From positions 1,043-65,042 of the forward strand of contig JBFFXF010000001.1 in the NCBI GenBank assembly GCA_041569895.1: DNA of 64,000 nucleotides, written 5' to 3'. Position 1 is the stretch's first letter. Each line of letters opens with the position of its first letter. This document shows, piece by piece, positions 5,566 through 47,534 of the stretch. The position numbers were made by a program, and so were the translations under genes. Under the pieces are notes generated by a model. That model worked only from the letters and a program-made list of their open reading frames with translations. It was not told the DNA's origin and made no database searches. This DNA comes from Planctomycetota bacterium. Lineage in GTDB: Bacteria > Planctomycetota > UBA8108 > JACQVS01.

Positions 5566-6570
5566 ATGGCCCGACTCGCAAAGACTTTCCGAATCGCTCG
5601 CTTCGGCGGGCCTGAAGTGCTCGAGCAGACGACCGTCGAGCTTCCGGAGCCGGGTCCCGGCGAGGTCGCCGTCGACGTCGAGTGGATCGGCCTCAACCGC
5701 GCCGAGATCCTCTGGCGCGAGGGGCGCTACCTCGTCCGTCCCGAGCTCCCGGCGCCGATCGGACTGGAGTGCGCCGGAGTGGTCCTCGACACCGGCGATC
5801 CGTCCGTACGCTTCGCTCCGGGCGACCGCGTCGGCGTCGTGCCGGGCACGTTCGATCCCCGCAAGTACGGGACGTATGCCGACACCATCGTCGTCCCGGC
5901 GCGGTCGCTGTTGCCGACGCCGGGCGAGCTCGACGGACCCGCGACGGCGGCCGTGTGGATGGCGTACCTGACGGCGTGGGGAGGGCTCCTCGACGTCGGT
6001 CAGCTCGAGGAGGGCTGGCACGTCGTCATCCCGGCGGCCTCGAGCTCGGTCGGAACCGCGGCGATCCAGCTCTGCCTGCACGAGGAGGCGGTGCCGATCG
6101 CCGTCACCACGAGACCCGAAAAGGCGGCCGCGCTCCGGGAGCTCGGCGTCGAGCACGTGATCGTGTCGTCGTCGGACGACGTCGTCGAGCGCGTCCTCGA
6201 GATCACCGACGGGGCCGGGGCGCGCCTCTTCTTCGATCCGGTCGGCGGCGCGTTGCTCGGCCAGGAGATTCGCTGCGCGGCGCCAGGGGCGAGAATCGTC
6301 GTCTACGGCATGCTCGATCAGACGCCGGCGACGATCGACACCGCGGGCCTGATCGCCCGCGGGGCGCGAATCGAGGGATACTTGCTTCCGAGGACCACCG
6401 GGGATCCGCAGGTCTTCGACGTCGCCGTCGGACAGATCGTCGACGCGATCTCCAACGGCGAGGTGGAGCCCGTCGTCGACCGCGTCTTCCGGTTCGGCGA
6501 GATCGCGGAAGCACATCGCTACATGGAAGCAGGGAGTCAGGTCGGGAAAGTGGTCGTCGGGGTGCACTGA
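5566..6570 (+). CDS. MDR-family NAD(P)H:quinone oxidoreductase / zinc-type alcohol dehydrogenase-like protein
   Basis: PGPGEVAVDVEWIGLN and AASSSVGTAAIQL Rossmann motifs. ATG at 5566. Divergent from the enolase gene across an AT-richer spacer. Confidence 0.8.
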   Translation: MARLAKTFRIARFGGPEVLEQTTVELPEPGPGEVAVDVEWIGLNRAEILWREGRYLVRPELPAPIGLECAGVVLDTGDPSVRFAPGDRVGVVPGTFDPRKYGTYADTIVVPARSLLPTPGELDGPATAAVWMAYLTAWGGLLDVGQLEEGWHVVIPAASSSVGTAAIQLCLHEEAVPIAVTTRPEKAAALRELGVEHVIVSSSDDVVERVLEITDGAGARLFFDPVGGALLGQEIRCAAPGARIVVYGMLDQTPATIDTAGLIARGARIEGYLLPRTTGDPQVFDVAVGQIVDAISNGEVEPVVDRVFRFGEIAEAHRYMEAGSQVGKVVVGVH

Positions 6571-6602
6571 GCCCCGTCGTCCGCGGCCCGGCCACCGGAA
6601 CC

Positions 6603-8633
6603 GTGTTCTGCCAGCGCTGCGGACTCCACTTCTCAGGCGTACGGACCGGCGGGCACTGCCCGAGCTGCGGTGGTGTCACGGGGGCGACCGCGGCGCCGGG
6701 CGAGCAGGAGGGCAGCGTCGCCGTCATCCACGACGATGGCGTGAAGGACGATGGCGTGAAGGACGATGGCGTGAAGGACGCTGGCGTGAAGGACGCTGGC
6801 GTGAAGGACGCTGGCGTGAACGACGCTGGCGTGATCGACGAGACGAAGACCGAGTCGCGAGACGCCGGCTGGCGACGCGGCGACGTCGTCGCGGGCAAGT
6901 ACGAGATCATTCGCAAGATCGGCTCGGGCGGTTTCGGCACGGTCTACAAGGTGCGTCACATCCAGCGCAAGAAGCTCTACGCGCTGAAGACGCCGCATCC
7001 CGACTACGTCCGCGACGAGGCCTTCCGGAAGCGATTCGAGCGCGAGATCGAGGCGATGGAGCGCTTCGTGCACCAGGACATGGTGGTGGTGCGCGATTCG
7101 GGCATCACCGGCGCCGGCGTCCCGTACTACACCATGGACTTCATCGAGGGCGAGAGCCTGCGCGAGGTGATGGACCGCGAGGGGCAGCTCGAGCTGAGGC
7201 GCGCGTTGAACATCACACGGCACGTCCTCGAGGTGCTCGATGCCGCGCACCGCCATCGCATCATCCACCGCGACATCAAGCCGGACAACGTGCTGCTCAC
7301 TCGGCGCGCGGGGAGGGAAGTCGTCAAGGTCCTCGATTTCGGCGTCGCGAAGCTGCTCGACCTCGTCGGCACCGCGACCATCACGGGGGGCATGCGGGTC
7401 GGCACGCCGAGATACATGTCGCCCGAGCAGGTCGCCGGCGAGGAAGTCGACGGGCGCAGCGACGTCTTCGCCGTCGGCATCGTGCTCTACGAGGCGCTCA
7501 CGGGCAGGCATCCGTTCGCCGTCGACCGCGATCCGATCCGCACGACGGCCGCGATCGTCAGCAAGAAGCCGGAGGCGCCCGAGGTCTACCGGACGGACCT
7601 GCCGCGCGGGCTCTCCGACCTCATCATGCGCATGCTCGAGAAGAAGCCGAGACGGCGTCCCCAGACGGTGGCGGAGGTCATCGAGTCGATCCCCCGGGTC
7701 GACAGCAGCGCCTCGCGCTCGGTAGCGCGGGCCGAGAGCCTCCGCTTCGTCGAGAGCGCGCCGCGGCGCAGCGTGTCGTCGCTCGTCCTCTCGCAGGAGA
7801 CGTCCGTCGGGATTCGGCGTGCGTTCCTCTTCTTCAAGCCGTCAGTGACGCTCGGCCGTTCGAACGACCGCTCGCGCGGAATCGACAACGACATCATCCT
7901 GAGACGCCTGCCGTGCCGGTCATCGCGCCGTGACGCCGAGAACTGGAAGCGCAACCTCACCATCAGCCACCGCGTCGCGTCGATCCGCGTCGACCGCTCG
8001 GCCGCCGTCATCGAGCCCTGGCCGGACTCGATGTCGGGAATCGTCGTCAGCGGGCTCCGGAGCCGCGAGCCGGTGCGCATCCAGTCGGACCGGTTTCACG
8101 TCGCGGTCGGCGAGCGCGCGATCGAGCTCGACGGGTACCGCGTGCTTCGCGACTCCTCCCGGAAGCCGGTCGACCTGTCGTTCATACCGCCGCGTGACAC
8201 CGGCGATGAAGCGGACTCGCCGTCGATCGGCTACTCGAATCCGTCGTGCGAGATCAACTGCGTTCGCCTGACGCGCAGCGAGAATCACCCGCTGCATTCG
8301 TACTTCATCGTGGCGCGACGGCTCGCCATCGGCTCCGGCGCGGGCGCCGAGCTGCGTATCGAGGGCGAGGGTGTCGAGGGGCACCACGCATCGCTCATAT
8401 TCGATCGAGGGGAGCTGTTCCTGATCGCGGTGGGCACCGTGCGCGTCGGTCGCGCCGGCGACGGCGTGCGCGAGGCGTCGCGGTCGCGGGCCGGCGCGAG
8501 CCCGACGGTCGACACCGAGACGATCCTCGCGCCGGGAGACGTCTACCCGGTGACGCCCGGCGTGTCCCTCGCGTTCGGCTCCGCGCGCCTGGTGGCCGAG
8601 GACATTGACGAGTGGATGTTCAAGCGAGCATGA
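6603..8633 (+). CDS. Ser/Thr protein kinase with N-terminal C4 zinc ribbon, DxGVK pentapeptide repeats and two C-terminal FHA domains
   Basis: Hanks kinase motifs [23 protein letters not shown] and SPE. CQRCG...CPSCGG zinc ribbon at the N-terminus. Two FHA-like segments in the last 300 aa. Start assigned to GTG 6603, the first start after the upstream stop. Confidence 0.8.
6729..6840 (+). repeat. 15-bp tandem coding repeat (DxGVK x7) inside the kinase gene
   Basis: Direct reading: gacgatggcgtgaag units repeated 7 times with D->A drift. Confidence 0.8.
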
Positions 8634-9229
8634 CCGACGACGAACCACACGACGTGACGCGCATCCTCGGCGAGATCGCCGCCGGCGACTCCTCGGCCGT
8701 CGGGCGCCTCCTTCCCGTGGTCTACGATCGACTTCGCGCGCTCGCCGGGAGCTACTTCCGCGGACAGCCGGCGGCGCACACGCTCCAGCCGACCGCGCTC
8801 GTCCACGAGGCCTATCTGAAGATGGTCAACCAGCGCGACGCCCAGTTTCGCGATCGCGCGCACTTCCTCGCCGTGTGCGCCGTCGCCATGCGCCAGATTC
8901 TCGTCGATCACGCGCGGGAGCGCGCCGCGGCGAGGCGCGGGGGCGGCTGGCGCCGCATCACGCTGTCGGGCGTCGACACGCCGTCGGGCAACACGCGCCA
9001 GATCGACGTCCTCGCCCTCGACGAGGCGCTCAACGACCTCGCGGAGCTCGACGAGCGTCAGGCGCTCGTCGTCGAGTACCGTTTCTTCGGCGGCATGAGC
9101 GTCGCCGAGGTCGCGGCGCGCATCGGCGTCTCGGAGAGGACCGTCGCGGACGACTGGCGCATGGCGAGGGCGTGGCTCCACGCCAGACTCGACGAGGGCC
9201 CGTCTCACGGCGGAAACGGTGACGTCTGA
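8630..9229 (+). CDS. ECF-type RNA polymerase sigma factor (STK-associated ECF subgroup, no cognate anti-sigma nearby)
   Basis: HDVTRILGEIAAGD and ALVHEAYLKM region 2, C-terminal region 4 with SERTVADDWRMARAWL. ATG overlaps the kinase TGA (ATGA) and its TGA overlaps the next ATG. Confidence 0.85.
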   Translation: MTDDEPHDVTRILGEIAAGDSSAVGRLLPVVYDRLRALAGSYFRGQPAAHTLQPTALVHEAYLKMVNQRDAQFRDRAHFLAVCAVAMRQILVDHARERAAARRGGGWRRITLSGVDTPSGNTRQIDVLALDEALNDLAELDERQALVVEYRFFGGMSVAEVAARIGVSERTVADDWRMARAWLHARLDEGPSHGGNGDV

Positions 9230-12200
9230 TGGACCGCCGCGAGCGTCACCAGCAGGTGCGCCGGCTCTTCCTGGAGGTCTGCGACCGTCCGCCGGAAGAA
9301 CGGCGGTCGTACCTCGAGGAGGCGTGCGACGGCGACCGGGAGCTGATCGACGAGGTCGAGCGGCTGATCGAGCACGACTCGCGCTCGCAGGAGCTGGTCG
9401 ACGAGTCGCAGCTCGAGAAGCGCGCCGACTGGCTCGTCGGCCACCTCGGCGAGGGTGAGGGTGACGGCGAGGGTGACGGCGAGGGTGACGCCGGGGGTGA
9501 CACCGAGGGTTTCGAGGAGACGCTTCCGGAGCGCATCGGGCGCTATCGCGTCGTCGGCGTCCTCGGCCGCGGAGGCATGGGCATCGTCTACGAGGCGGAG
9601 CAGGATGAGCCCCGCCGTCAGGTGGCGCTCAAGGTGATCAACCCCGGTCTCGCCTCGGGCCGCGCTCTCGACCGTTTCCGCCACGAGGCCGAGATCCTCG
9701 GCAAGCTCGAGCACGCGGGAATCGCGCGGATCTACGAGGCCGGCACGGACCGGCGCGGCGGCGCGGTGACGCCGTTCTTCGCCATGGAGCGCATCGCCGG
9801 CAAGCCGATCCTGCAGTTCGCCACCGAGCGTGATCTTTCCGTGCGCGAGCGTGTCGAGCTGATCGCCAGGACGTGTGACGCGCTCGACTACGCGCACTCG
9901 AGGGGCATCGTCCACCGCGACCTGAAGCCCGGGAACATCCTGGTCGACGAGACGTCGTCCGTGCCGCAGCCGAAGATCCTCGACTTCGGCATCGCGCGAA
10001 TCATCGACGTGGACGCCCAGACGGTGACGATGCAGACCGGAACCGGTCAGCTGATCGGCACCGTTCCGTACATGAGCCCCGAGCAGGCCGCCGCGACCGG
10101 TCAGGTCGACGCGCGGAGCGACGTCTACTCGCTCGGCGTCGTGCTCTACGAGCTGCTCGCCGGACGGCTTCCGCTCGACCCCCGCGGCAAGGCGATCCAC
10201 GAGGCGGTTCGCGTGGTCCAGAAGATCGACCCGCCGTCGCTCGGGTCGATCGACACCCGGCTGCGCGGTGACCTCGAGACCATCGTCGCCAAGGCGCTCG
10301 CCAAGGAGCCGCCACGGCGCTACGCGTCCGCCGCCGACCTCGGGGCCGACCTGCGCCGCTACCTCGACGACCAGCCGATCCTGGCGCGTCCGCCGACGAC
10401 CTTCTATCAGCTGTGGAAGTTCGCGCGGCGCAACAAGCCGCTCGTCGCCGGTGTCGTGGTGGCGTTCGTCGCCATGCTCGCGGCGACGATCGTCTCGCTG
10501 CGCCAGGCGAGCATCGCGCTGGATCGAGAGCGCATCGCGCTCCTGCACGCGTACCGCGCCAGCCTCGCCGCCGCGGCGACCGCCGTGCGCGATCGCGACC
10601 CGCTCGCTCACCAGGAAGAGCTCGAGTCGTCGGCGGAGCGGCTGCGCAACTGGGAGTGGCAGTACTGGAAGAGCCGCATCGACAGGAGCTCCGCGGTCAT
10701 CGAGACGGGCGAGCGGATCGTCAATGCGACCTTCTCCGGCGCCGGTGACCGTGTCGTCCTCGTGCGGGGCGACGGCGTCATCGAGACCTGGCGCCCGGAT
10801 CTCTGCACACGGTCGGCCTCGGTTCCGACCGACGCGCGGGTCGTCCACGAGGCCGCCTTCGACCGCGACGTGACGCGCATCGCGTGTGTCACCGGCGCGG
10901 CGCGGGACGAGATCGGGCTCTGGGACGTCTCCTCCGGCGAGCGTCGCGGCGCGATCCGACTCTCCGCGAGCTGTCACAGCCTGCGCTTCTCTCGCGATGC
11001 GCGCTGGATCGTCGGCGCCGGCATCGAACGCGTCGCGTGGATCTGGGACGGCTCGAGCGCCGAGCCGTTGACGGTCGCCAGAAAGGAGCTCGGCAGGGTC
11101 TCGATTCCACGGCCGATCGCGTTCGTGCAGTCGGCCGGCGACGTGGTCATCGGGGGAAGAAGCGGCCTTCTCCACCAGCTCGATCTGCCCACGGGGGAGA
11201 CTGTGAGGCGCGTCAACCTCGACACGCCGGACATCCTGTGCATGGCCTTTTCCTCCGACGACGGCGTGTTCGTCTTCGGCGAGGCGAGCAACAAGGCGTA
11301 CATCTGCGACGCGGTGAACGAATCGGTGAACTGGATCCTCAGGGGGCACAGGGCGCCGATCCGGGCGCTGGCTCTCAGTCGCGACGACGCGCTCCTCGTC
11401 ACGGCCGCCGACAGGACCGTGCGGCTCTGGGACGTCGCCACGGGCGGATCTCTCGCGACCTTCACCGGTCACACGGACGAGCTCTCCGGTGTCGTCATCT
11501 CTCCGGGCGGAGAGAGGATTCTCTCCCGCGCGCTCGACGGCACCGTGCGCGTCTGGGAACCACGGAGCGAGATCGACGTGACGCTCGGGCTCATCGAGGG
11601 CTCGCATCCTCGCGCCGCGCGCCTCACGCCCGACGGACGGCTGCTGCTGGTCGCCGTGTTTCATCGACGCGTCGAGCTCTGGGACCCGCGCACCGCCGAG
11701 CAGATCGTCGCGCACGAGAGCACGCTGTCGCCGAGGCTCACGGACCTCGTGGTCTCGCCGCGCGATGGGAGGCACGTCGCGTTCGCGTCGAGCGCCGGCG
11801 AGATCGAGCTCCGCGAGGTGCTGTCGTGGCGGCGAGTCGCCGCGGCGCGCCATCCGAGCAGGCGCGAGATCGAGCTTGCCTTCAGTCCCTCGGGAGAACA
11901 ACTTGCCTCGACCTCGGCGGACGGTTCGGTGTCGGTCTGGTCGGTCCCCGGCCTCGAGGAGATCGCGTCACGGACGCCGGGCAAGTCGACGCCCTCCGCG
12001 GGGCTCGCTTTCGGTCCCCGGGGGCGAATCGCCACCGGCGTCGGCGCGGACGTCTGGCTCTCCGACGCCGGGACGCTCGACACACGGGTGCTCGCGGTCG
12101 GTTCCGCTGCCGTGACCTGCGTGGCCTGGGACCGCGCCGGCGAGCGGCTCGCGGTGGGGGATGCGGATGGGGCCGTGCACATCCGGCGGCGCGACGGCCG

Positions 12201-12630
12201 GCTCCTCGGCACCCTCCGCGGCCACTCCGAGGCCGTCACGCGTGTCACCTTCTCACCCGACGGGAGCCGCGTCGCCTCCGGAGCCGAGGACACGACGGTC
12301 AGGGTGTGGGACTCGACCGCGTTTCACGAGGTGACGAGGCTGAGCGAGCAGGGGGCGAGGATCCACGACCTCGAGTTCGATTCGCGGGGCACCATGCTCG
12401 TGAGCGCGTCGAACGACGGGTCGATCCGGTTCTTCGACATCGAGCCCGACTGGAAGCGACTGGTGCGACACCGGCGCATCGCCGCGAGAGCCGACGACGC
12501 GCGAAAGGCGGTGGACGCCGTCCTCGAGACCACGGACGACCACGCGCTCGCCCTCGAGCGACTCCGCGCCGAGATCGACGGCGACGACGTTCTGCTCGAT
12601 GCGGCGATCCGGGAGTTGATCCGGCGGTGA
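9229..12630 (+). CDS. Ser/Thr protein kinase with one TM helix and C-terminal extracytoplasmic WD40 beta-propeller
   Basis: GRGGMGIVYEA, HRDLKPGNIL, DFGIAR and SPEQ motifs. TM helix LVAGVVVAFVAMLAATIVSL. At least 7 WD40-like blades (e.g. RLWDV, RVWD). In-frame 12-bp GEGD repeat at 9450-9512. Confidence 0.9.
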   Translation: MDRRERHQQVRRLFLEVCDRPPEERRSYLEEACDGDRELIDEVERLIEHDSRSQELVDESQLEKRADWLVGHLGEGEGDGEGDGEGDAGGDTEGFEETLPERIGRYRVVGVLGRGGMGIVYEAEQDEPRRQVALKVINPGLASGRALDRFRHEAEILGKLEHAGIARIYEAGTDRRGGAVTPFFAMERIAGKPILQFATERDLSVRERVELIARTCDALDYAHSRGIVHRDLKPGNILVDETSSVPQPKILDFGIARIIDVDAQTVTMQTGTGQLIGTVPYMSPEQAAATGQVDARSDVYSLGVVLYELLAGRLPLDPRGKAIHEAVRVVQKIDPPSLGSIDTRLRGDLETIVAKALAKEPPRRYASAADLGADLRRYLDDQPILARPPTTFYQLWKFARRNKPLVAGVVVAFVAMLAATIVSLRQASIALDRERIALLHAYRASLAAAATAVRDRDPLAHQEELESSAERLRNWEWQYWKSRIDRSSAVIETGERIVNATFSGAGDRVVLVRGDGVIETWRPDLCTRSASVPTDARVVHEAAFDRDVTRIACVTGAARDEIGLWDVSSGERRGAIRLSASCHSLRFSRDARWIVGAGIERVAWIWDGSSAEPLTVARKELGRVSIPRPIAFVQSAGDVVIGGRSGLLHQLDLPTGETVRRVNLDTPDILCMAFSSDDGVFVFGEASNKAYICDAVNESVNWILRGHRAPIRALALSRDDALLVTAADRTVRLWDVATGGSLATFTGHTDELSGVVISPGGERILSRALDGTVRVWEPRSEIDVTLGLIEGSHPRAARLTPDGRLLLVAVFHRRVELWDPRTAEQIVAHESTLSPRLTDLVVSPRDGRHVAFASSAGEIELREVLSWRRVAAARHPSRREIELAFSPSGEQLASTSADGSVSVWSVPGLEEIASRTPGKSTPSAGLAFGPRGRIATGVGADVWLSDAGTLDTRVLAVGSAAVTCVAWDRAGERLAVGDADGAVHIRRRDGRLLGTLRGHSEAVTRVTFSPDGSRVASGAEDTTVRVWDSTAFHEVTRLSEQGARIHDLEFDSRGTMLVSASNDGSIRFFDIEPDWKRLVRHRRIAARADDARKAVDAVLETTDDHALALERLRAEIDGDDVLLDAAIRELIRR

Positions 12631-12644
12631 GCCGAGGGAGCGAG

Positions 12645-13060
12645 ACCCGTGCCCGAAAGGCTGCTCGAATAGCGGAGGTTTGCTGTCAGACGATTCATAA
12701 GGAAGGCAGGAAACTCAGGAAGGCAGGAAACGGAAGGATTGATGGGGTCGAGCTTCGTGAGCCTCACTCGCTCCTCGAACGGAGTCGAGAGGTCGGGTCA
12801 TTTGCTGATTCCACTGCGAACACAAAGAAACTCCTCTGTGCGTCTCTGTGCTCTCACGCGGTGCTGCGCTCGCGCAGCGCCGCTGTGGTTCAAATCGTAA
12901 CCGACCCTCGCTTCTCGATGATGTCTTCGAGATCGACAGAGCTCACAAGGCACGACCAGACTCGTTTCCTGCCTTCCTCTTCTTCCTGCCTTCCTTATAA
13001 ACGCGTCGCAGAGTCTCGCGGGCGGAGTCGAGCACCCTTTTCGGGCACGGGCCGGGACCG
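12645..13060. repeat. nested inverted-repeat (MITE-like or structured) element in the STK / tex convergent spacer
   Basis: Outer inverted repeat cccgtgcccgaaagg (12651-12666) vs ccttttcgggcacggg (13038-13055). Inner inverted repeat (ggaaggcaggaaa)x2 (12700-12735) vs tttcctgccttcc x2 (12962-12996). Internal palindrome gcggtgctgcgctcgcgcagcgccgc. First ~85 bp recur at 42770-42860. Confidence 0.6.
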
Positions 13061-13072
13061 GGGACGGAGGGT

Positions 13073-15559
13073 TTACCAGCGGCGCTTGAACTTGTCGAGC
13101 AGGTCGTGGAGGTCCTTCTCCGTGACCGGGCCGCTGTCGCGGCGGTCCTCGCGTGGCTTGCGGGGCGGACGGGATCGGCGCAGCTCGTCCCGCGTGCCGC
13201 GTTGCCCGCGCTCGCCGCCGTTCTGTCGCCGCTTTCCCTGCGCCTGGCCTCGCTTCTTGCGGCGCCCGCGCTCGTGTCGGGGCTTCGGCTGGAGCGCCTT
13301 CATCGAGAGCGTGATGCGCTCGCGCTCGCGGTCGACCTCGACGACCTTGACCTTGACCACCTGGCCGACGTGGATCACCTCGCGCGGGTCCTGCACCCAT
13401 CGGTGCGAGAGCTCCGAGAGGTGCACGAGACCGTCTCGCTTGACGCCGATGTCGACGAACGCGCCGAAGTTGGTGACGTTCGACACGCGTCCCTCGAGGA
13501 CCATCTCGGGCTGGACGTCCTCGATCGACTGCACGTCGTCGCGCCACTTCGGCGTCGCGAACTTTGGTCGCGGGTCGCGGCCGGGGCGCTCGAGCTCGGC
13601 GCGGATGTCGCGAAGGGTGAACTCTCCGATGCCCTGCTCGACGTCGACGAACTTGCTGAAGTCGACGCGCGAGACGAGCTCCGGCTCGCCGATCAGCTTG
13701 CCGATGTCGACTCCGAGCTCCCCCGCCATCGCCTCGACGAGCTCGTAGCGCTCCGGGTGGATCGCGGTGCCGTCGAGCGATGGCTGGTCGCCGCGGATGC
13801 GCAGGAAGCCCGCGGACTGCTCGAACGTTCGCGGACCGAAACCGCTCACCCCGAGCAGGTCCTGGCGAGAGCCGAAGCGGCCGTGCTCGTCACGGAAGGC
13901 GACGACGCTCCGGGCGAGGCGCTCGGAGAGACCCGACACGCGTCGCAGGAGCGCCACGGACGCGGTGTTCAGCTCGACACCGACACTGTTGACGACGGAC
14001 TCGACGGCGAAGTCCAGCTCGCTCGCGAGCTGCTTCTGGTTGACGTCGTGCTGGTACTGTCCGACACCGAGCGACTTCGGCGTGATCTTCACCAGCTCGG
14101 CGAGCGGGTCCTGCAGCCGGCGCGCGATCGAGACCGCCCCGCGATGCGCGACGTCCAGCTCCGGCAGCTCCTCCCGCGCGAGCGGCGACGCGGAGTACAC
14201 CGAGGCGCCGGTCTCCGGAACGATGGTGACGATCACCCCGGACAGCGCCTCGCCGCCGTGGTCGCGGATCGCCGCGCGGGCGAATGTCTCGGTCTCGCGG
14301 CTGCCGGTGCCGTTGCCGACGGCGATCGCGCTGACCTGGTGCTTGCGAGTGAGCTCGACGATGGTCGCCGCGGCCTCCTCCGGTCTCGCCTCCGGCGGCG
14401 TCGGAAAGATCGTCGACGTCGCCAGGACCTTGCCAGTGCCGTCGACCACCGCGATCTTGCACCCCGTGCGATATCCCGGGTCGATGCCCATGACGTGAAG
14501 CTGGCCGAGCGGTGGCTGCAGCAGAAGCGCCTCGAGGTTGGCGCGGAAGACGCGGATCGCCTCGCCCTCGGCCTGCTCGCGCGCGGAGGCGCGGATCTCG
14601 TTGGTGATCGAGGGGCGTAGCAGCCTGCGGTACCCGTCGCGCGTCGCGTCGGCGACCTCCTTGCCGCACGGCGAATCGATCGATACGCCCCAGCTGCGGA
14701 CGAGGCGGTCGATCTCGCGCTCGTCGTCGATCTCGAGTGTCACCAGAAGGACTCCCGCGCGCTCTCCCCGGAAGATGGCGAGCCGCCGGTGCGACGGCGC
14801 GCGGGCGAGCGGCTCCCGGTGATCGAAGTAGTCGCGATAGACGGAGCCCTTTTCCTCCTTGCCGGTGACCACCTTGACGGCCAGCCGGGCCTCGGCGGCC
14901 ATGACGCCGCGCAGGTGCGCGCGATGCCCGGCGTCGTCGGCGACACGCTCCGCGAGGATGTCACGCGCGCCTGCGATCGCGTCCGCCGCGGTGGCGACGC
15001 CCTTCTCGGCGTCGACGAACTCGGCGGCGAGCTCCTCCGGCGTGATCGTCTCACCCGCGCGCGCCAGGAGGGCGTCCGCGAGCGGCTCCAGCCCTTTCTC
15101 ACGCGCGTCGCGCGCCCGGGATTTCTTCTTCCTGCGGTAGGGCTGGTAGAGATCCTCGAGCGCCTGCTTCGTGGTCGCCGCGTGGATGGCACGCTCGAGC
15201 TCCTCGGTGAGCTGGCCCTGGTCCGAGATGCTCGCGAGGATCACGTCGCGTCTGGCGGCCAGCTCGAGGAAGTACGCCCTGCGCTTGTAGATGGTCTCGA
15301 GCTGCTCGTCGAGCAGGCCGCCGGTCGCCTCCTTGCGGTAGCGGGCGACGAAGGGGACGGTGCATTCGTCCGCGAACAGCGCGTCCGCCGCCTGCACCTG
15401 CTGCTTTCGCAGACCGAGCTCGCCGGCGATGGCGCCGACGAACCGGTCCTCGAGACGCGGCGCCTCGAGACGCGGTGCATCAAGACGCGATGCATCAGGA
15501 CGCGAAGCATCAGGACGCGAAGCATCGGGACGCGATGCGGTCTCCGTCTCAGTCGACAT
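13073..15559 (-). CDS. tex: transcription accessory protein Tex (YqgF/RNase H-like, HhH and S1 domains)
   Basis: VPFVARYRKE N-terminus, YqgF region (HVMGIDPGYRTGCKIAVVD), S1 domain (EGRVSNVTNFGAFVDIG), basic C-terminal tail. Confidence 0.9.
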   Translation of the reverse strand: MSTETETASRPDASRPDASRPDASRLDAPRLEAPRLEDRFVGAIAGELGLRKQQVQAADALFADECTVPFVARYRKEATGGLLDEQLETIYKRRAYFLELAARRDVILASISDQGQLTEELERAIHAATTKQALEDLYQPYRRKKKSRARDAREKGLEPLADALLARAGETITPEELAAEFVDAEKGVATAADAIAGARDILAERVADDAGHRAHLRGVMAAEARLAVKVVTGKEEKGSVYRDYFDHREPLARAPSHRRLAIFRGERAGVLLVTLEIDDEREIDRLVRSWGVSIDSPCGKEVADATRDGYRRLLRPSITNEIRASAREQAEGEAIRVFRANLEALLLQPPLGQLHVMGIDPGYRTGCKIAVVDGTGKVLATSTIFPTPPEARPEEAAATIVELTRKHQVSAIAVGNGTGSRETETFARAAIRDHGGEALSGVIVTIVPETGASVYSASPLAREELPELDVAHRGAVSIARRLQDPLAELVKITPKSLGVGQYQHDVNQKQLASELDFAVESVVNSVGVELNTASVALLRRVSGLSERLARSVVAFRDEHGRFGSRQDLLGVSGFGPRTFEQSAGFLRIRGDQPSLDGTAIHPERYELVEAMAGELGVDIGKLIGEPELVSRVDFSKFVDVEQGIGEFTLRDIRAELERPGRDPRPKFATPKWRDDVQSIEDVQPEMVLEGRVSNVTNFGAFVDIGVKRDGLVHLSELSHRWVQDPREVIHVGQVVKVKVVEVDRERERITLSMKALQPKPRHERGRRKKRGQAQGKRRQNGGERGQRGTRDELRRSRPPRKPREDRRDSGPVTEKDLHDLLDKFKRRW
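15448..15538 (-). repeat. 15-bp tandem coding repeat (ASRPD/APRLE pentapeptides) at the tex N-terminus
   Basis: Direct reading of cgcgatgcatcaggacg-type units. Encodes SRPDASRPDASRPDASRLDAPRLEAPRLE. Confidence 0.75.
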
Positions 15560-17225: not shown

Positions 17226-17500
17226 GCCCGCGGATACGGTTGGCGAGACGGAGGACGGAGACGGAGCACAGAGACCAGAGGACAGAGACCAGAACCCGCG
17301 GGTCGGAATCGGTCATCGGAATCGGAATCGGCGTCGGCATCGGACATCGGACATCGGAGTCGGTTCTCTGATATCGGCCTCGGTCATCGGCCTCGAACTC
17401 CCCCTACCCGGCCCGGACGTCGGCCACCACAGCGACTCCGAGAGTCTTCGGGCACGGGCACGGGCACGGGCACGGGCACGGGGACGGGGACGGTACGCCC
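17226..17500. repeat. composite intergenic hexamer-repeat element: GA-rich module, (GGAATC/GGACAT)n and (GGGCAC)n arrays
   Basis: Direct reading. Fills the convergent spacer between the PHP gene and the Kazal gene. Confidence 0.75.
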
Positions 17501-25048: not shown

Positions 25049-25412
25049 GCCGGTCCCGCACCCGTCCCCGTTCCCGTCCCCGTCCCCGTTCCCGTCCCCG
25101 TTCCCGTCCCCGTTCCCGGTCCCGGTCCCGGTCCCGGTCCCGTGCCCGTGCCCGTGCCCGTGCCCGTGCCCGTGCCCGAACTCGTGCTCGTCGGCGTACA
25201 CCCGATGAGACTCGGAGTTCTCACTCTCGCGGGGAGCAAGGAACGGGAACGCAGCTGACGCAGATTGAGAAAGCCGCGATCGGCGGGAATCGGTCTCGGA
25301 TCTCTGTCCTCCGACGTCGGACATCGGACATCGGACTCGGGCTCGGAGTCGGAATCGGAGTCGGAGTCGCGTCTTCGAGGACGAGGACGAGGACGAGAGC
25401 AGGGTCCGGGGC
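25049..25412. repeat. composite intergenic hexamer-repeat element: (CCCGTN)n array, conserved core in reverse orientation, (CGGANN)n array and (GAGGAC)n
   Basis: Direct reading. Convergent spacer between gmhA and the M28 peptidase gene. Contains gacgcagattgag, the reverse complement of CTCAATCTGCGTC. Confidence 0.75.
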
Positions 25413-28744: not shown

Positions 28745-28835
28745 TTGCAGAAATTTCTCGGGCGCCTTCGGCGGGGACGGGGACGGGCACGGGCACGGGT
28801 ACGGGAACGGGTACGGGAACGATTACGGGAGTCAC
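28745..28835. repeat. hexamer array (GGGGAC/GGGCAC/GGGTAC/GGGAAC)n
   Basis: Direct reading. Between the M29 aminopeptidase stop and the IPT-protein start. Confidence 0.7.
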
Positions 28836-32984: not shown

Positions 32985-33060
32985 CTGCCCTCTGCCCTCT
33001 GATCTCTGATCTCTGATCTCTGATTTCTGGTCTCTGATCTCTGATCTCTGTCTCCGTCCC
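32985..33060. repeat. heptamer tandem repeat (CTCTGAT)n with (CCCTCTG) lead-in
   Basis: Direct reading: ctctgatctctgatctctgatctctgatttctggtctctgatctctgatctctg. Confidence 0.75.
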
Positions 33061-39183: not shown

Positions 39184-39480
39184 ATCACGTCTCCGTTCTT
39201 CTTCCGGGCCCGGTTCTCGTCCTCGTCCTCGTCCTCGTCCTCGAAAACCCCTCGTCACCGCGTTGGATGTCCGATACCGAGACCGCTTTCGACCCTGACT
39301 CTGACTCCGACGCCGACCCCGATACCGACTCCGATACCGCTTCCGACCCCGATTCCGATACCGGCGCCGACACCGACCCCGACTCCGACACCGACACCGA
39401 TTCCGACTCCGATACCGATATCCTCGCGTGTGCTCTGCTCTGTCCGGTCACTTTCCGCGTGCTCTTCGTTTCCGCCCCCC
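39184..39480. repeat. composite intergenic hexamer-repeat element: (TCCTCG)n then (CCGAYN)n x~25
   Basis: Direct reading. Divergent spacer between the SBP gene and the FHA-M64 gene. Confidence 0.75.
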
Positions 39481-39583
39481 GCTTCCCGATCCCACCCTCT
39501 GGCCGTCGAGTGTATCATAGACCCTCTTGTTTCGACTCTCCCGCGTGAAGAGAGGCCGGCGCACCCATCACGGAGTTCCTCGC

Positions 39584-42500
39584 ATGAGAATCGTTCTCGA
39601 GGAGAACGCCGCCCGGCGCGTGTTCGAGTTCGAGGAGGGTCGCGAGCTGGTCCTCGGCCGCGCCCCGGACTGCGATATCCCGCTCGCGACGCTGCGCGCG
39701 TCGCGTCACCATGCCCGGATCGTCCTCGAGGACGGCCGGCACTGGCTGGTCGACGAGGGCTCGTCGAACGGGACTCTGGTCAACGGCGCGCGGGTGGACC
39801 GGCGCGCGCTCTCATCGGGGGACGTCATCGCCATCGGCGAGGCGCTGCTCCGCTTCGAGACCCACCGCCGGACCGGACTGGCGTTTCCCGGCGTCTACGC
39901 CGCGTTCCTCGCGCTGCTCTGGGCGGTGCTGGTGGTCTCGCTGGTCGTGCTGGCCGTGCGCCAGCTCACCGACGAGGGGGAGCGGCTGGCGGTGCGACGG
40001 GCGGGGTCGGTCTCCGGCATGGAGTCGGCCGGGGATCGCGGGAGCGCCGCGGATTCGGGTGCGGGTGCCGTACCCGTTCCCGTACCCGCTCCCGTACCCG
40101 TACCCGTACCCGTACCCGTTCCCGTACCCGTTCCCGACACCGACATCGAAACCGACACCGAAACCGACACCGATACCGATACCGATACCGATACCAAGAC
40201 CGACAGCGATTCCCGGGTGGCCGATGTGCTTCGTCCCATCATTGCCGGGGAGCGTGGCTGGGAGGGTGTCGATGCGCTCGTCGCGCTGCGCTCCGGGTCG
40301 CCGGATGCCGAGGACATGCCGTTTCTCGATCGGCTCGTGCCGGTGCTGCGCGGGCTTCGCGAGGGCGCGTGGCGTCGTCTCGACGAGCAGGCGGCGACCG
40401 CGATCGCGGCGCTCGTCGAGCGCGGCGAGGCGCGTTCCGCGGCGGCGACGGCGCGCTTCCTGGCGGTGGTCGCGCCGGGGGAGGACGCTCGTTCGCGCTG
40501 GGAGTCGGCGGCGCGATCGATCGAGGACAGCGTGGACCTCGAGTCGGACGGCGAGACGCAGCCTGTCGTGCCGCGCGAGGATCGGCGGCCCGACGACGAG
40601 CCGCTCTCATCGCCCGAGGCGCTCGCGCTCAAGGATCGCATCGCCGAGGCGATCGAGCAGTGTCGTTTCGATGAGCTCTCCTCGATCTACCACGCCCTGC
40701 TCGCCCTCGGGCCGTCGCCCGGCGAGCGCCTCCGCCTGCTCGAGGGATTGCTCGCGGCGTACGCGATGGAGGTGATGTTCGGCGAGTTCGTCGCGCGTGC
40801 GGCGACCGACCCGCCCGCGGTGAGCCCGTACGCGGGCTACGAGGGGCGCGTCCTCGAGGTGTCGCGCGATGCCGTCCGCTTCGAGCTCGACATCGAGGGG
40901 CGCGAGGGCGCGTACCGTGACAGCACGACGTGGCGCCGGATCACCTGGCCGAAGAAGCTCGAGCTCTTCAGCAGCGTCCCCCTGAGCCCGCGCGGCCTCG
41001 TCGGCGTCGCGCTCTACGCCTTTCACCACGGACACGAGGAGGGCGCGCACGCGGCGCTGATCCGCCTTCGCAAGCGCAAGGATGGCGCGACGCTCGCGGA
41101 CAGCGTCCTCGCGAGCCGGCTCGGCGTGCCGGTGCCGCCTGGCGGGTTCGTCGAGTATCGCGGCCGTCTCGTCACGCCGGAGTATCGCGCCGCCGAGATC
41201 GCCCGCCGCGAGCGCCTCGAGGAGGAGGAGCGCGCCGCGCGAGCGGAGCTCGAGCAGCTCAAGAAGGAGGCGGGGCTCGCCGCGTACGTGCAGGTCGCCC
41301 GCCGCTATCGCGAACGCGGGCTCTTCGAGCTCGCCCAGCACATCCTCGAGGTCCTCGCGCGACGCTTCTCGAACACCGAGGCCGGCGCGGAAGCGAGGCG
41401 GCTCGCCGATGATCCCGTCCTCGTCGTCAGGCCGATCGCCGCTTCCGGTCCGTCGAGCAACCGACTCGACATCTGCCTCCTCGGCGAGGGTTACACGCTC
41501 GACGACGAGGCGCAGGACGCGTTCCTCGCGCGCGCCCGCTCGGCGGCGTCGCTGCTCTTCAGGGAGGAGCCGTACCGCGAGTACGCCTCGTACTTCAGCC
41601 TGCACGCCGTGCAGGTCGCCTCGGCAGAGCACGGTCTCGATCGCGAGCCCGGCGGAGTGGCTCGCGACACCGCTCTCGGCGGCCGAGTCGAGTGGGACCG
41701 CTTCACCGTGGACGAGTCGCTGGTGCGCGCGATCCTCGCACGACTCGGCGATCGCGGCCGCGACGGACAGGCGGTGGTGATCGGGAACGCCCACGCCGGC
41801 GTGGCGACCGCGAGCCCCGGCATCGCGTGCATCTCGAAGATCGCGGTCGCCTCGCTCGGGCACGAGCTCGGCCACTCGCTCGGCAGCCTGCGCGACGAGT
41901 ACGACTTCGAGCCCGGCACCGATCCCGAGCGCCACGTCGACAACCGCCGCGAGCCCGACGTCCCGACCGCCGCGCTGCCGCCGAACATCATGCGCGGCTC
42001 GGACCGCGACGACGTGCTCGAGAAGGCCATCTGGCGGCCGTGGATCGAGGCGGGCGAGTCGCGGTGGTGGAACGGCGCCGGGGTCTCCGCCTTCCAGGGC
42101 GGCAACCGCAGGCGCTTCAACTACTGGCGCCCGCAGGCGACATGCAAGATGCGCACGTCGAGCGCGGAGTTCTGCGTCGTTTGCATGGAAGCGATGGTGA
42201 AGAGCATCTACCGCCACGTGCGCCCGATCGATCGCGTCGAGCCGTCGAGCGAGGAGGTCACCATCGACGAGGGCGGCTCGACGAGCGTGCGCGTCTGGAC
42301 CCTGAAGCCGCGCTCGCGATTCCTCGAGACGACCTGGCGCCTGGTCGAGCTCCAGGCGGAGCCGAACGCGACCGGAACCACCTCGGTCGCCGGCGACACA
42401 CGACCGGTCCCGCTCGCCAGGACCGGCCGCCGCATCGACCCGTCAGGCGCGCCGATCGAAATCGCCATCCTCCGGGACCTGGCGCCCGGACGCTACCGGC

Positions 42501-42601
42501 TTCAGGTCACCGTGCGAGACACGACGCCGTGGGTGCTCGACGACGGTGAGGGGCTGCTGTCGGAGGTGCGGGACTGGACGGTGGTGGTGCGGGGGCGGTG
42601 A
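39584..42601 (+). CDS. FHA-domain transmembrane protein with extracytoplasmic peptidase M64 (IgA-peptidase-like HExxH...DEY) domain
   Basis: N-terminal FHA (GRAPDCDIPL...SRHHARI...SSNGTLVNG). TM helix AFLALLWAVLVVSLVVLAV. C-terminal HELGHSLGSLRDEYD zinc-metallopeptidase motif. Confidence 0.8.
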   Translation: MRIVLEENAARRVFEFEEGRELVLGRAPDCDIPLATLRASRHHARIVLEDGRHWLVDEGSSNGTLVNGARVDRRALSSGDVIAIGEALLRFETHRRTGLAFPGVYAAFLALLWAVLVVSLVVLAVRQLTDEGERLAVRRAGSVSGMESAGDRGSAADSGAGAVPVPVPAPVPVPVPVPVPVPVPDTDIETDTETDTDTDTDTDTKTDSDSRVADVLRPIIAGERGWEGVDALVALRSGSPDAEDMPFLDRLVPVLRGLREGAWRRLDEQAATAIAALVERGEARSAAATARFLAVVAPGEDARSRWESAARSIEDSVDLESDGETQPVVPREDRRPDDEPLSSPEALALKDRIAEAIEQCRFDELSSIYHALLALGPSPGERLRLLEGLLAAYAMEVMFGEFVARAATDPPAVSPYAGYEGRVLEVSRDAVRFELDIEGREGAYRDSTTWRRITWPKKLELFSSVPLSPRGLVGVALYAFHHGHEEGAHAALIRLRKRKDGATLADSVLASRLGVPVPPGGFVEYRGRLVTPEYRAAEIARRERLEEEERAARAELEQLKKEAGLAAYVQVARRYRERGLFELAQHILEVLARRFSNTEAGAEARRLADDPVLVVRPIAASGPSSNRLDICLLGEGYTLDDEAQDAFLARARSAASLLFREEPYREYASYFSLHAVQVASAEHGLDREPGGVARDTALGGRVEWDRFTVDESLVRAILARLGDRGRDGQAVVIGNAHAGVATASPGIACISKIAVASLGHELGHSLGSLRDEYDFEPGTDPERHVDNRREPDVPTAALPPNIMRGSDRDDVLEKAIWRPWIEAGESRWWNGAGVSAFQGGNRRRFNYWRPQATCKMRTSSAEFCVVCMEAMVKSIYRHVRPIDRVEPSSEEVTIDEGGSTSVRVWTLKPRSRFLETTWRLVELQAEPNATGTTSVAGDTRPVPLARTGRRIDPSGAPIEIAILRDLAPGRYRLQVTVRDTTPWVLDDGEGLLSEVRDWTVVVRGR
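40070..40210 (+). repeat. in-frame hexamer arrays (CCCGTN)n + (ACCGAY)n encoding (PV)n and (TD)n inside the FHA-M64 gene
   Basis: Same two hexamer families as the intergenic elements; here the frame is maintained. Confidence 0.8.
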
Positions 42602-42649: not shown

Positions 42650-42860
42650 TCCTCGAAAGCCTTGGATGGCGGAGTCCGATGTCCGATTCCGCGATCCGAG
42701 TCCGATTCCGATGACCGATTCCGAGGTCCGACTCCGACGTCGACGTTGTAAGGAATGCGTTCCCGTACCCGAAAAGCCGGCGACTCACGCGAGGCTCACG
42801 AGGCTCGACCCACTCATGACTTCCGTTTCCTGCTTTCCCTGAGTTTCCTGCCTTCCTCAT
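42650..42860. repeat. (TCCGAN)n hexamer array plus second copy (about 85% identical, reverse orientation) of the first ~85 bp of the 12645-13060 element
   Basis: Direct alignment of the reverse complement of 42770-42860 with 12690-12780 (ggaaggcaggaaactcag...gggtcgagcytcgtgagcctc). Confidence 0.65.
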
Positions 42861-42917
42861 GGGTCGTTTGCAGGGTTTCGCCCGGGAAGTCGAGCAGCGT
42901 TCGGGACGGAAGAAGGC

Positions 42918-43904
42918 TCAGTTGCGCTCCGCCCGCAGCTCGTCCACGCGGCCCTCGAGGAAGCGGGTCAGGGCTCGTTCCATCTCGCGGGCGTTCTGGA
43001 AGCGCTGGCGCGGGTCCTTCGCCAGCGCTTTCGCGAGGACGCTCGTGAAGGTGCGTGGCACGTCCGGTCGGAGCTGGTGGGGCGGCTGGAACTCCTCCAC
43101 CTCGATGGCACGCAGCAGCTCGTGCAGGTCGTCGCGCACGACGGGGTAGTGGCCGGTGACGAGGTGGTAGAGGGCGACTCCGAGCGTGTAGATGTCGGTG
43201 CGCTCGTCAACGCCGTCGCCACGGACCTGCTCGGGGGCCATGAAGAGAGGCGAGCCGGCGATGCGGCCGGCGTCGTCGCTCGTCTCGCCGTGATGCTCTC
43301 GCGACAGGCCGAGACCGAAGTCGGCGAGCACGATCCGTCCGTTCTCCTCGCGGAGGAGATTGGCGGTCTTCAGGTCGCGGTGCACCAGTCCCGCCTCGTG
43401 CACGGCACGAAGGGCCCGGCAGACCGAGATGCCGATACGCGCGACCTCGCGCGCCGGCAACGGACCGTGCCTGGCGAGCGACGACTCGAGCGAGTCGCCG
43501 CGTACGTACTCGGTGACGAGCACGAGCTGGTCGTCCTCGAGCTCGAGGACGCCGAAGATGGTCAACACGTTCGGGTGGCGCACGCGCGCGAGCGCGCGGG
43601 CCTCACGGAGAAAGCTCTCGCGCGCGGACCGACTGAAGCGCAGGTGCGGCAGCGGAATCTTCAGCGCGACGTCGCGACCGAGCAGCTCATCGCGGGCGCG
43701 GTACACCTCTCCGAACGCGCCCTCTCCGATCTTCGACTCGATGGTGAAGCCAGGGATTTCGGGGAGCTGTTCGAGCGCCGCGGCGTCGTCGGGCATCGCG
43801 CGGAAGCGATCCTCGCGCCCCGGATCGAGGTCCAGGGTCTCCGCGAGGTCGTCGAGCGCGATCGACGCTGCGCGTTCTCGTGAGTCACTCGGTGTGGCGG
43901 ACAT
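42918..43904 (-). CDS. Ser/Thr protein kinase (kinase domain only, about 328 aa)
   Basis: GEGAFGEVYRA, ALK, HRDLKTANLL, DFGLG and APEQ motifs. ATG at 43902-43904. Confidence 0.8.
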   Translation of the reverse strand: MSATPSDSRERAASIALDDLAETLDLDPGREDRFRAMPDDAAALEQLPEIPGFTIESKIGEGAFGEVYRARDELLGRDVALKIPLPHLRFSRSARESFLREARALARVRHPNVLTIFGVLELEDDQLVLVTEYVRGDSLESSLARHGPLPAREVARIGISVCRALRAVHEAGLVHRDLKTANLLREENGRIVLADFGLGLSREHHGETSDDAGRIAGSPLFMAPEQVRGDGVDERTDIYTLGVALYHLVTGHYPVVRDDLHELLRAIEVEEFQPPHQLRPDVPRTFTSVLAKALAKDPRQRFQNAREMERALTRFLEGRVDELRAERN

Positions 43905-44164
43905 TCTGTTTTTCCAAACCCGCCGTCGTCGGTCGGGTTTCTCCTGTCCTGTCTCCCCTTGATGTCTCTCTCGCGTCGTTTTTTTTTCTCGCTCGCTCGT
44001 GATGAGAGACGTCGGAGAGCCCCATCCTTTCACAGGAAACCGCCGATTTTTCGCGGAAGGCCGGGGACGGACCACGTAAGTCCTTTGTCCAGGCCAGCCG
44101 GGGCGAAACCGGGAGACGCCGCTCGTTACAACGCCGTGACGGAAACGCGACGGTCGGCGGCGTC

Positions 44165-46384: not shown

Positions 46385-46670
46385 CAACTCCCCTGCTCGG
46401 ACCCCTTCCCGGACCCGGCCCCGGGCCCGGTCCCGTGCCCGAGAGCTTTTGGGATCGAGTACTTGGTCGACGTCGGGGCCGGGCTGTCCGGCGTTCAAGG
46501 CCGAGGCCGACGTCCCATCTGATTCCGATGACCGATTCCGATGTCCGACTCCGACTCCGATTCCGATTCCGATTCCGATGACCGAGACCGATGACCGAGA
46601 TCAGAGGCAGAGAACAGAGACCGAGTCCGATCTTCAATCTGCGTAATCGGTGAAATCTGCGTTCCCTTCT
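46385..46670. repeat. composite intergenic hexamer-repeat element: (CCCGGN)n, (CCGATN)n, GAGATCAGAGGCAGAGAACAGAGACC module and TTCAATCTGCGTAATCGGTGAAATCTGCGTTCCC core
   Basis: Direct reading. Confidence 0.8.
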
Positions 46671-47333: not shown

Positions 47334-47534
47334 GGTGAGGCCGTGGTACTCGACAGCATGTGGGATTTCAAGGTCACTGTCCCGGCGCCAAGTACGCGGA
47401 CATGGTTCTTACCCGTACCCTTCCCGTTCCCGAAACTTCGGACTCGGGAACTCACGTCTCTTCCCCATCCAGCGTTTGGCCGAGGCTGATGAGCAGCTTG
47501 GTCCGAAGTTCCGACGCCGCACGGCATCGGGGTC

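Follow-up and report, generated by a model that had tools for sequence, protein, structure and literature searches.

A palindromic pair of post-stop repeat units between convergent genes of a Planctomycetota bacterium

The stretch of DNA analysed here (the window, 64 kb) contains a convergent spacer between the gene for an ECF-sigma-linked Ser/Thr kinase with WD40 repeats (STK-WD40, 9229-12630, plus strand) and tex on the minus strand, which is annotated in MAGs as 13073-15397 and whose ORF extends to 15559. The 410-bp spacer is non-coding and forms an imperfect palindrome, in which two copies of a unit of about 125 nt meet head-on (Table 1). The left arm begins 15 nt after the TGA of the kinase gene and the right arm 21 nt after the TAA of tex; apart from these 15 and 21 nt, the element fills the gap between the two stops almost exactly. 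In each arm the purine-rich strand is the sense strand of the upstream gene. A third, solo copy of the unit (copy C) lies in a second convergent spacer, between an M64-FHA peptidase gene (39527-42601, plus strand) and another Ser/Thr kinase (STK) gene (42918-43904, minus strand), and begins about 10-12 nt after the TGA of the latter, again in sense orientation. Placement between convergent genes, as described in a first-pass annotation of the sequence, holds for both loci. All three arms start in frame with the upstream ORF (chance 1 in 27). Since a palindrome makes sense-orientation symmetry automatic, the solo copy is the only independent observation of this orientation.

Table 1. Coordinates of the repeat units and their parts in the window
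Feature	Coordinates	Strand	Details
Left arm, unit copy 1	12646-12770	+	nhmmer three-arm profile E = 6.7e-35 (match to 12769)
Right arm, unit copy 2, inverted	12936-13051	-	nhmmer E = 2.5e-29
Terminal block of left arm, CCCGTGCCCGAAAGGCTGCTCGAAT	12646-12670	+	includes the generic post-stop motif CCCGTNCCCGAA
Terminal block of right arm, CCCGTGCCCGAAAAGGGTGCTCGAC	13027-13051	-	preceded by hexamer-array-like CCGTCCCCGGTCCCGG at 13052-13069
Left-arm direct repeats, AGGAAGGCAGGAAAC	12700-12731	+	12700-12714 and 12717-12731
Right-arm direct repeats, AGGAAGGCAGGAAAC	12964-12995	-	minus-strand reading
Third conserved block of left arm, GGGTCGAGCTTCGTGAGCC	12745-12763	+	
Third conserved block of right arm, TGGTCGTGCCTTGTGAGCT	12940-12958	-	
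Inner segment, weakly palindromic	12771-12935		165 nt; left half about 40 nt longer than right; fold z = -2.8
GC-rich apex palindrome, GCGGTGCTGCGC-TC-GCGCAGCGCCGC	12858-12883		no T-run on either side
Solo third unit copy (copy C)	42787-42907	-	nhmmer E = 5.5e-33
Generic motif CCCGTACCCGAAAAGC, inverted	42762-42777	+	bounds far side of solo copy

The first-pass annotation had described the spacer as a nested inverted repeat, and the sequence features it named are all present, far beyond chance. The outer inverted repeat is a perfect 13-nt match between CCCGTGCCCGAAA (12646-12658) and TTTCGGGCACGGG (13039-13051), about 5 nt on the left and 2-4 nt on the right from where it had been placed. The inner inverted repeat of paired units (12694-12732 against 12963-13001) is 39 nt long and 87% complementary, which makes it the longest in the window among arms lying within 600 nt of each other. 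Each arm of it contains AGGAAGGCAGGAAAC twice at a 17-nt spacing, starting at 12700 and 12717, with the complements at 12964 and 12981. Allowing up to two mismatches, GGAAGGCAGGAAA is found six times in the window against 0.61 expected, always in the element or in copy C. The internal GC-rich palindrome is paired at 11 of 12 positions (-26.6 kcal/mol on the plus strand and -22.8 on the minus strand), and local GC is indeed lower, at 58% for the element and 69% for the window.

Judging from the alignments, the nested repeat is better described as a single unit of about 125 nt that is present twice, in opposite orientations. The left half and the reverse complement of the right half are homologous along the arms, with 75% column identity, and a profile built from the three arms (nhmmer --max) has exactly three matches in the 64-kb window. 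The unit opens with a C-rich post-stop motif; after a spacer come two GGA repeats, purine-rich and 15 nt each, and then a block of 17 nt. Conservation is concentrated in three blocks, namely CCCGTGCCCGAAA.GG.TGCTCGA, 38 nt that contain the purine-rich pair of AGGAAGGCAGGAAAC direct repeats, and the 17-nt GGTCGAGCCTCGTGAGC, while the spacers between all three have freely diverged. The 15-mers are the best conserved portion of the unit in both the three-arm alignment and the profile. This block-wise conservation with diverged spacers suggests constraint and not one recent duplication.

Copy C had been reported as a partial second copy of the first 85 bp or so, in reverse orientation at about 85% identity and in a convergent spacer. 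Orientation, identity and setting stand, and the extent has to be enlarged. By BLASTN, element positions 57-135 align with 42870-42791 (85% identity over 80 nt); the three-arm profile spans 42907-42787, so the shared part is about 120 nt, more than the first 85. Copy C has GGA units at 42844-42856 and 42826-42838 and no complementary arm. Without a partner arm it cannot act as a long hairpin, and its existence indicates that the repeated thing is the unit and not the palindrome. Its far side is bounded by an inverted generic motif (Table 1), with a (TCCGAN)n array at 42672-42741 upstream. Aligned with the main element's right end, copy C scores better than any of 500 shuffles; once the generic motif is taken away, however, 136 of 1000 shuffles score equally for the remaining 18 nt, which indicates that the motif supplies the signal.

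A Ser/Thr kinase gene adjoins both loci, as had been pointed out, and this association has n = 2. Kinases are three of the roughly 48 genes in the window; two of the three arms follow kinase genes and the third follows tex. A homology search with the kinase adjoining the second locus gave a match on a single 86.6-kb contig and in no other assembly.

The main correction to the first-pass annotation concerns the outer "terminal inverted repeat", which is not specific to the element; it is where a (CCCGTN)n hexamer array, of a type found behind many stop codons of this genome, comes to its end. Exact CCCGTNCCCGAA occurs six times in the window against 0.08 expected: at the two ends of the element, at 42762 on the far side of copy C, and at 47423-47434, 17447-17458 (minus strand) and 25169-25180 (plus strand). 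None of the last three has an inverted partner, and at 17447-17458 and 25169-25180 the motif ends (CCCGTN)n arrays. Long arrays of this kind lie at 25061-25178, 17449-17493, 28772-28821 and 60843-60935, and CCCGTNCCCGT is found 42 times in the window where 0.33 would be expected. The arrays begin 8-54 nt after stop codons, with the C-rich strand as sense, and mostly (six of seven) keep the reading frame of the upstream ORF; the opposite strand carries runs of the G-quadruplex type. The stretch between the tex stop and the right arm is itself a short hexamer array of the same kind. The apparent terminal inverted repeat thus arises because both convergent genes bear the same post-stop motif. More generally, spacers in the window are mosaics of hexamer and heptamer arrays, including (CCCGTN)n, (TCCGAN)n, (GACTCC)n, (CTCTGAT)n and (CGAGGA)n. 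About 600 kb of other loci contained no (CCCGTN)n arrays.

For Xanthomonas and Nostoc, Rehm et al. 2015 (PMC4692102) describe G-rich repeats of GGGNATC close to stop codons. Of the element, the outer motif alone resembles those repeats, in its tandem units of 6-7 nt, its G3 tracts, its variable unit number and its enrichment outside coding sequence, at up to about 50 bp from stops. It differs from the repeats described there in that the unit is the hexamer CCCGTN, the strand that is sense after the stop is C-rich and not G-rich, and the arrays are mostly in frame.

The whole spacer folds as one hairpin with arms of about 200 bp (-218.9 kcal/mol, z = -7.4), and none of 100 shuffled sequences folded as well. 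Single arms, in contrast, fold worse than their shuffled controls (z = +1.55, +1.70 and +0.84). Each arm has 4-6 GGA motifs within 52 nt that are 73-75% purine (six motifs and 75% purine around the left-arm direct repeats). These motifs lie within arms that are unstructured when alone, and would pair with their complement in the whole palindrome. A conserved GCTCGAC/GTCGAGC stem in each arm was considered and rejected, since in the right arm it has mismatches that nothing compensates, and shuffled sequences fold better than the arms do. The sole strong structure is the arm-to-arm hairpin, and an independently structured ncRNA unit is therefore unsupported.

Codon-position GC in the spacer is flat in all six frames, with GC1, GC2 and GC3 at 0.57-0.58, whereas GC3 is about 0.9 in the genes. 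The small ORFs at 12739-12900, 12848-13000, 12715-12825 and 12943-13035 have GC3 of 0.51-0.67 and were rejected as coding; the low GC3 and the lack of any ORF conserved among the arms also led us to reject a type I toxin-antitoxin reading. Rfam gave no match above its gathering threshold anywhere in the window, and a search of the spacer up to E = 10 returned nothing near the site but sub-threshold matches, one to NiCo within the coding sequence of tex and one to a VEGF IRES at E = 8.4. Consensus scans of the two spacers found neither a sigma-70-like promoter nor a hairpin with a T-run terminator. Among arms inspected by eye, an ECF-type -35/-10 arrangement, GGAAAC-N17-CGAG, was dropped because an 8-nt deletion in the right arm breaks the spacing, and a TATAAG that might serve as a -10 box has no -35 partner. 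No terminator-like site is present in 12300-13400, where the U-tract is absent and the tails are only UUAUAAAC and UUAUGAAUC; the window does have a canonical hairpin with a T-run at another place (minus strand, 61170-61213). The suggestion of a structured ncRNA gene, with no Rfam match, arms that fold worse than shuffles and no promoter or terminator consensus, was not borne out.

The identical sequence is present in two further NCBI assemblies, GCA_041609175.1 (JBFIRG010000566.1) and GCA_041613875.1 (JBFJGJ010000036.1), so that the site is filled, with identical sequence, in three assemblies of the species and the element is not an assembly artefact. In two short-read assemblies contigs end within the left arm, at window positions 12680 and 12719, which fits either extra genomic copies or poor coverage of a strong hairpin. 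Outside the species, the nearest Tex proteins are 65-69% identical, and their names point to Thermoanaerobaculia/Acidobacteriota. The tex loci of these nearest relatives have different neighbours and short spacers, with no synteny and no element. Pattern scans of IMG/VR viral contigs and BLASTN against plasmids and phages gave no match, and a family-specific pattern matched JGI metagenomes once, by chance, in coding sequence (L093). In the literature, sequence strings matched primers only, and a keyword search gave nothing pertinent. The spacer is in our assessment a new, lineage-specific and fairly ordinary intergenic repeat, and its status as a mobile element or an RNA gene is unproven.

We propose a model, to which we assign a probability of roughly 0.4, where the unit is a lineage-specific repeat module of gene 3' ends and the convergent pair may serve as a bidirectional hairpin barrier and 3'-end protector. 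From the sequence and its folding we infer the following course of transcription. A transcript from either gene would first yield an unstructured purine arm; about 250 nt later, the pyrimidine complement of that arm would be transcribed, and the RNA would snap into a single very long hairpin. Such a hairpin could form a barrier that needs no U-tract and works in both directions, halting or pausing transcription before it runs antisense through the neighbouring gene, and shielding 3' ends from exonucleases. In favour of the model are the folding energy and size of the inverted repeat, its fit between the two stops, the sense placement of all three arms shortly behind stops, the block-wise conservation, the non-coding sequence, the membership of the terminal motif in post-stop arrays, the lack of the element behind tex in the nearest relatives and the recurrence of purine-first hairpins in other phyla. 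As to the long-hairpin bidirectional terminator that had been suggested for this spacer, a very stable hairpin does lie exactly between the convergent stops, but the U-tract is missing, and the reading is plausible but unproven. Against the 3'-end module stands the solo copy, for which no function is evident. Independent gain of an arm by two adjacent convergent genes is improbable (about 0.04 by a rough count) and a single event is needed; the palindrome probably arose by insertion of a palindromic unit or by local inverted duplication.

A true MITE or foldback element would be a different account, and we think it unlikely. Here, the 410-bp palindrome would have inserted in a short convergent spacer and a 145-bp copy C would be its internally deleted derivative. 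Two dispersed loci with unrelated flanks, the non-coding sequence and a GC content below that of the flanks agree with the MITE-like element of the first-pass annotation. The terminal inverted repeat with two subterminal 15-bp direct repeats at each end resembles transposon ends with their transposase sites, inverted copies of the terminal motif bound copy C, and the element is missing at the tex loci of relatives; the contig ends in the left arm could mean that further near-identical copies exist. However, a target-site duplication, for which the first-pass annotation had called, was found at neither locus. The main element is flanked by ...GCGAGA|CCCGTG...CACGGG|CCGGGA... and copy C by ...GCGTT|CCCGTA...GGGACGG|AAGAAGG..., without a direct repeat in either case. 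A classical MITE thus fails two defining tests, those of target duplication and of element-specific ends, the terminal motif being generic in this genome and mostly without an inverted partner. With that motif left out, the similarity between copy C's tail and the right end is not significant, and a Pfam scan of the window ORFs found no transposase domain among about 48 genes. The plasmid, phage, viral and metagenome searches likewise speak against mobility, and with arms that differ by 15-25% any mobility would be old. Finally, under a classical MITE the three arms must have fallen in frame behind stops by chance, which is unexpected for random insertion. Because a generic post-stop motif can mimic transposon ends, annotation as a MITE or an sRNA calls for genome-wide copies or transcript mapping.

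The element resembles several known intergenic repeats in kind and is a member of none. Correia/NEMIS elements of Neisseria are short non-coding intergenic inverted repeats with full-length and shorter forms, which are co-transcribed with neighbouring genes into long hairpins that affect termination and RNase III processing. Their terminal inverted repeat of 26 bp is specific, their insertion duplicates a TA target, and they occur in hundreds of copies. The present element is likewise a short non-coding intergenic inverted repeat with a full and a shorter form, but has no duplication, a generic terminal motif and two loci in the 64-kb window. REP/BIME and ERIC sequences are imperfect palindromes as well; they lie in transcribed spacers, often behind stops, between convergent genes and as inverted pairs, and a role in stabilising the mRNA upstream or in dampening read-through has been ascribed to them. 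REP units are about 35 nt long with a GTAG head and a link to the RAYT transposase, and the ERIC unit has 127 bp. Our element shares with them the imperfect palindrome, the post-stop position and the inverted pair between convergent genes; it differs in its 125-nt unit with internal purine direct repeats and has no sequence similarity to them. Neither the GTAG head nor a unit of about 35 nt is present in it, and the window ORFs contain no Y1 transposase (RAYT) domain. Canonical bidirectional terminators are GC stems of 5-15 bp flanked by A- and U-tracts. The spacer has in common with them a symmetric hairpin between two stops that is usable from both strands, yet its arms are about 200 nt long at 75% identity and lack a U-tract.

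It is also conceivable, if rather doubtful in our view, that the palindrome is a neutral by-product of repeat-prone intergenic DNA, produced by slippage arrays together with template switching or inverted duplication at a convergent junction, and merely tolerated. The mosaic of hexamer and heptamer arrays in the spacers of this genome is in keeping with such an origin, as is a 15-nt array in 15453-15538, upstream of tex, that differs by one unit between assemblies. The GGA repeats can be read as degenerate (GGAAGGCA)n, an 8-mer that is a plain microsatellite in many bacteria. Yet the GGA block and the two other blocks are far better conserved than the spacers in three copies, as are blocks in an unrelated multi-copy element of an Acidobacteria MAG, and a dispersed third copy exceeds what local slippage would give. 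The orientation bias of similar hairpins elsewhere, described below, also argues against neutrality.

We regard it as distinctly unlikely that the purine-rich arms are binding platforms, either as a GGA RNA sponge of the CsrA/RsmA type, maybe linked to kinase mRNAs, or as DNA sites; in the DNA variant, four 15-bp sites with two-fold symmetry could be bound by a regulator or a partition-type protein. The density of GGA motifs in a short purine-rich stretch, as in the CsrB/RsmY/RsmZ sponge RNAs, the lack of structure in single arms and the conservation of the 15-mers are all compatible with binding, and the two arms behind kinase genes would suit the kinase link. In the main element, however, each purine arm has its complement downstream, which would sequester the motifs; the GGA motifs are thus paired with their complement in the palindrome and, unlike those of the sponge RNAs, do not sit in hairpin loops. 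Further, no CsrB/RsmY/RsmZ-type Rfam match and no promoter or terminator of its own were found, tex, the gene ahead of one arm, does not encode a kinase, and the neighbours of similar hairpins elsewhere show no enriched gene family.

These similar hairpins came from a genome-contig collection, in which a pattern of two GGAARGCAGGAA units occurs at at least 92 loci, many of them plain (GGAAGGCA)n microsatellites; the genome of the window is not among the matches listed. Among those listed, 34 loci have the unit and its complement within 350 nt and would form hairpins of 30-50 bp. Their hosts are Myxococcota, Acidobacteria, Phycisphaerae, Verrucomicrobia, Lentisphaerae, Nitrospirota, a Sphingomonadales MAG and an archaeal MAG, and the listed hairpins occupy convergent, tandem and divergent spacers beside unrelated housekeeping genes. 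Pfam searches of 101 ORFs around them found no transposase and no enriched gene family, and Rfam returned nothing relevant for 15 of these loci from other phyla. In one Acidobacteria MAG the hairpin is the best conserved part of a 245-bp multi-copy element, with no compensatory changes. Among the matches listed, the purine arm precedes its complement in 13 genomes and follows it in 2 (binomial p = 0.007), as it does in the window element. Long purine-first intergenic hairpins of AGGAARGCAGGAA units, with the 12-mer best conserved, are found in at least eight phyla among these matches. The apparent ubiquity of the motif follows from a query that selected for it, and because the elements of other phyla share only the queried motif with our unit, homology is unproven.

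It is tempting to speculate, at long odds, that the element is the local form of an undescribed signal of gene 3' ends; in this lineage, C-rich (CCCGTN)n arrays lie behind stops and in frame with them. Those hexamer arrays, together with the purine-first hairpins found across phyla, are the parts that most deserve follow-up. To our knowledge, canonical terminators are absent from most genes in high-GC, poorly studied bacterial lineages. If the 3'-end module model is true, a post-stop repeat that pairs into a 200-bp hairpin would be a concrete answer to how convergent transcription is kept separate in this organism. If, in addition, a conserved factor such as an RNA-binding protein, a ribonuclease or Rho recognises these hairpins, they would represent a new and widespread class of termination or 3'-end protection that dispenses with a U-tract.

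Several genes in the window are followed, 8-54 nt after the stop codon, by arrays of the hexamer CCCGTN whose C-rich strand is the sense strand; the same motif lies at both ends of the 410-bp imperfect palindrome (hereafter the element) and in copy C, the solo third copy of its repeat unit. Of the seven cases close to a stop codon, six have CCC GTN in the reading frame of the preceding ORF (binomial p = 0.007, calculated post hoc), so that the array would read (Pro-Val)n-Pro-Glu past TGA, TAA or TAG. A coding Pro-Val linker at 40068-40131 is built from the same hexamer as the post-stop arrays. Loci from other organisms, about 600 kb in all, contain no (CCCGTN)n array.

On the strand opposite the C-rich arrays the sequence is (GGGCAC)n or (GGGGAC)n, and these G3-4 N2-3 runs fit a G-quadruplex motif. 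One such G-run, GGGCACGGGCCGGGACCGGGGACGGAGGG, is located between the tex stop codon and the right end of the element.

Coordinates of genes, arrays and hairpins (window positions unless a locus is named)
Feature	Position	Strand
Ser/Thr kinase	5682-8633	+
ECF sigma factor, PF07638 type	8612-9229	+
Kinase-WD40 protein	9229-12630	+
(CCCGTN)n array	25061-25178	+
(CCCGTN)n array	17449-17493	-
(CCCGTN)n array	28772-28821	-
(CCCGTN)n array	60843-60935	+
(CCCGTN)n motif, element ends and copy C	12646, 13051, 42905	
G-run stretches	17450-17495, 28772-28821, 13046-13072	+
G-run stretches	25061-25178, 60843-60935	-
Short spacer arrays other than CCCGTN	17303-17358, 25317-25369, 42672-42741, 46521-46598, 60959-61007; 39297-39412; 32997-33054; 61124-61168	
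AGGAARGCAGGAA hairpins (examples)	L040:7381-7540, L072:1106-1262, L076:4880-5054, L067:1654-1843	
(CAGGAAAG)n arrays adjoining stem-loop sequences, Photobacterium	L008:1-60, L009:5141-5200, L036:139-230	
(CAGGAAAG)n array adjoining stem-loop sequence, Lonsdalea	L032:3761-3860	

Outside this species, AGGAARGCAGGAA units and their complement form long intergenic hairpins (30-50 bp) in many phyla, with 34 among the listed matches (L001-L092) of a pattern scan for paired purine-rich GGA-type units. Among those matches, 13 genomes have the purine arm first and 2 have the reverse order. None of the 15 hairpin loci from other phyla that were scanned has an Rfam match, and no gene family is enriched among the 101 neighbouring ORFs examined. 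In the acidobacterial MAG JACPPM01, a 245-bp multi-copy intergenic element (L020:5101-5345, L078:4113-4358 and about 20 more loci; 85-98% identity across copies) is frequently located at contig ends and is without a terminal inverted repeat; its core, where GGA units form a hairpin of about 48 bp, is its best-conserved portion. The (CAGGAAAG)n array loci resemble GGA-rich small RNAs and are possibly CsrA-sponge-like. In two of them, L008 and L036, a hairpin with a T-run comes after the array and resembles an intrinsic terminator.

A stem-loop with a T-run, ACGGAGCGAGCCGGCA-TT-TGCCAGCTCGCTCCGT followed by TTTCTTTCG, occurs in the window at 61170-61213 (-), downstream of a gene ending at 61239. 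It looks like a canonical intrinsic terminator, so hairpin-plus-T-run terminators are in use at places in this genome. The kinase, ECF sigma factor and kinase-WD40 genes form one apparent operon (5682-12630, +), and the element lies directly 3' of this cluster. A sub-threshold NiCo riboswitch match in Rfam (13085-13170, +; E = 0.0015, 26.2 bits where the gathering score is 37) is antisense inside the tex coding region and is most likely due to chance. At another kinase gene, a purine-rich leader with an A9 run (43933-43998, -) precedes the probable ATG (43904); the long ORF reaching 44504 overlaps the neighbouring gene, and 44504 is probably not the true start.

Contigs from two independent same-species MAG assemblies, L094 and L098, end within the left arm of the element, at window positions 12680 and 12719, respectively. 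These breaks fit either extra near-identical copies in the genome or low read coverage of the hairpin.

The intergenic spacers of the window are mosaics that include (TCCGAN)n, (GACTCC)n, (CTCTGAT)n and (CGAGGA)n arrays besides (CCCGTN)n, and several share strings resembling TCCGATGACCGATTCCGA. Upstream of the annotated tex start (15397) lies a 15-nt tandem array (15453-15538), in which the window and the same-species contig JBFIRG010000566.1 are exactly one unit apart (a 15-nt gap at ~15492-15537), making this array a variable-number repeat among near-identical genomes.
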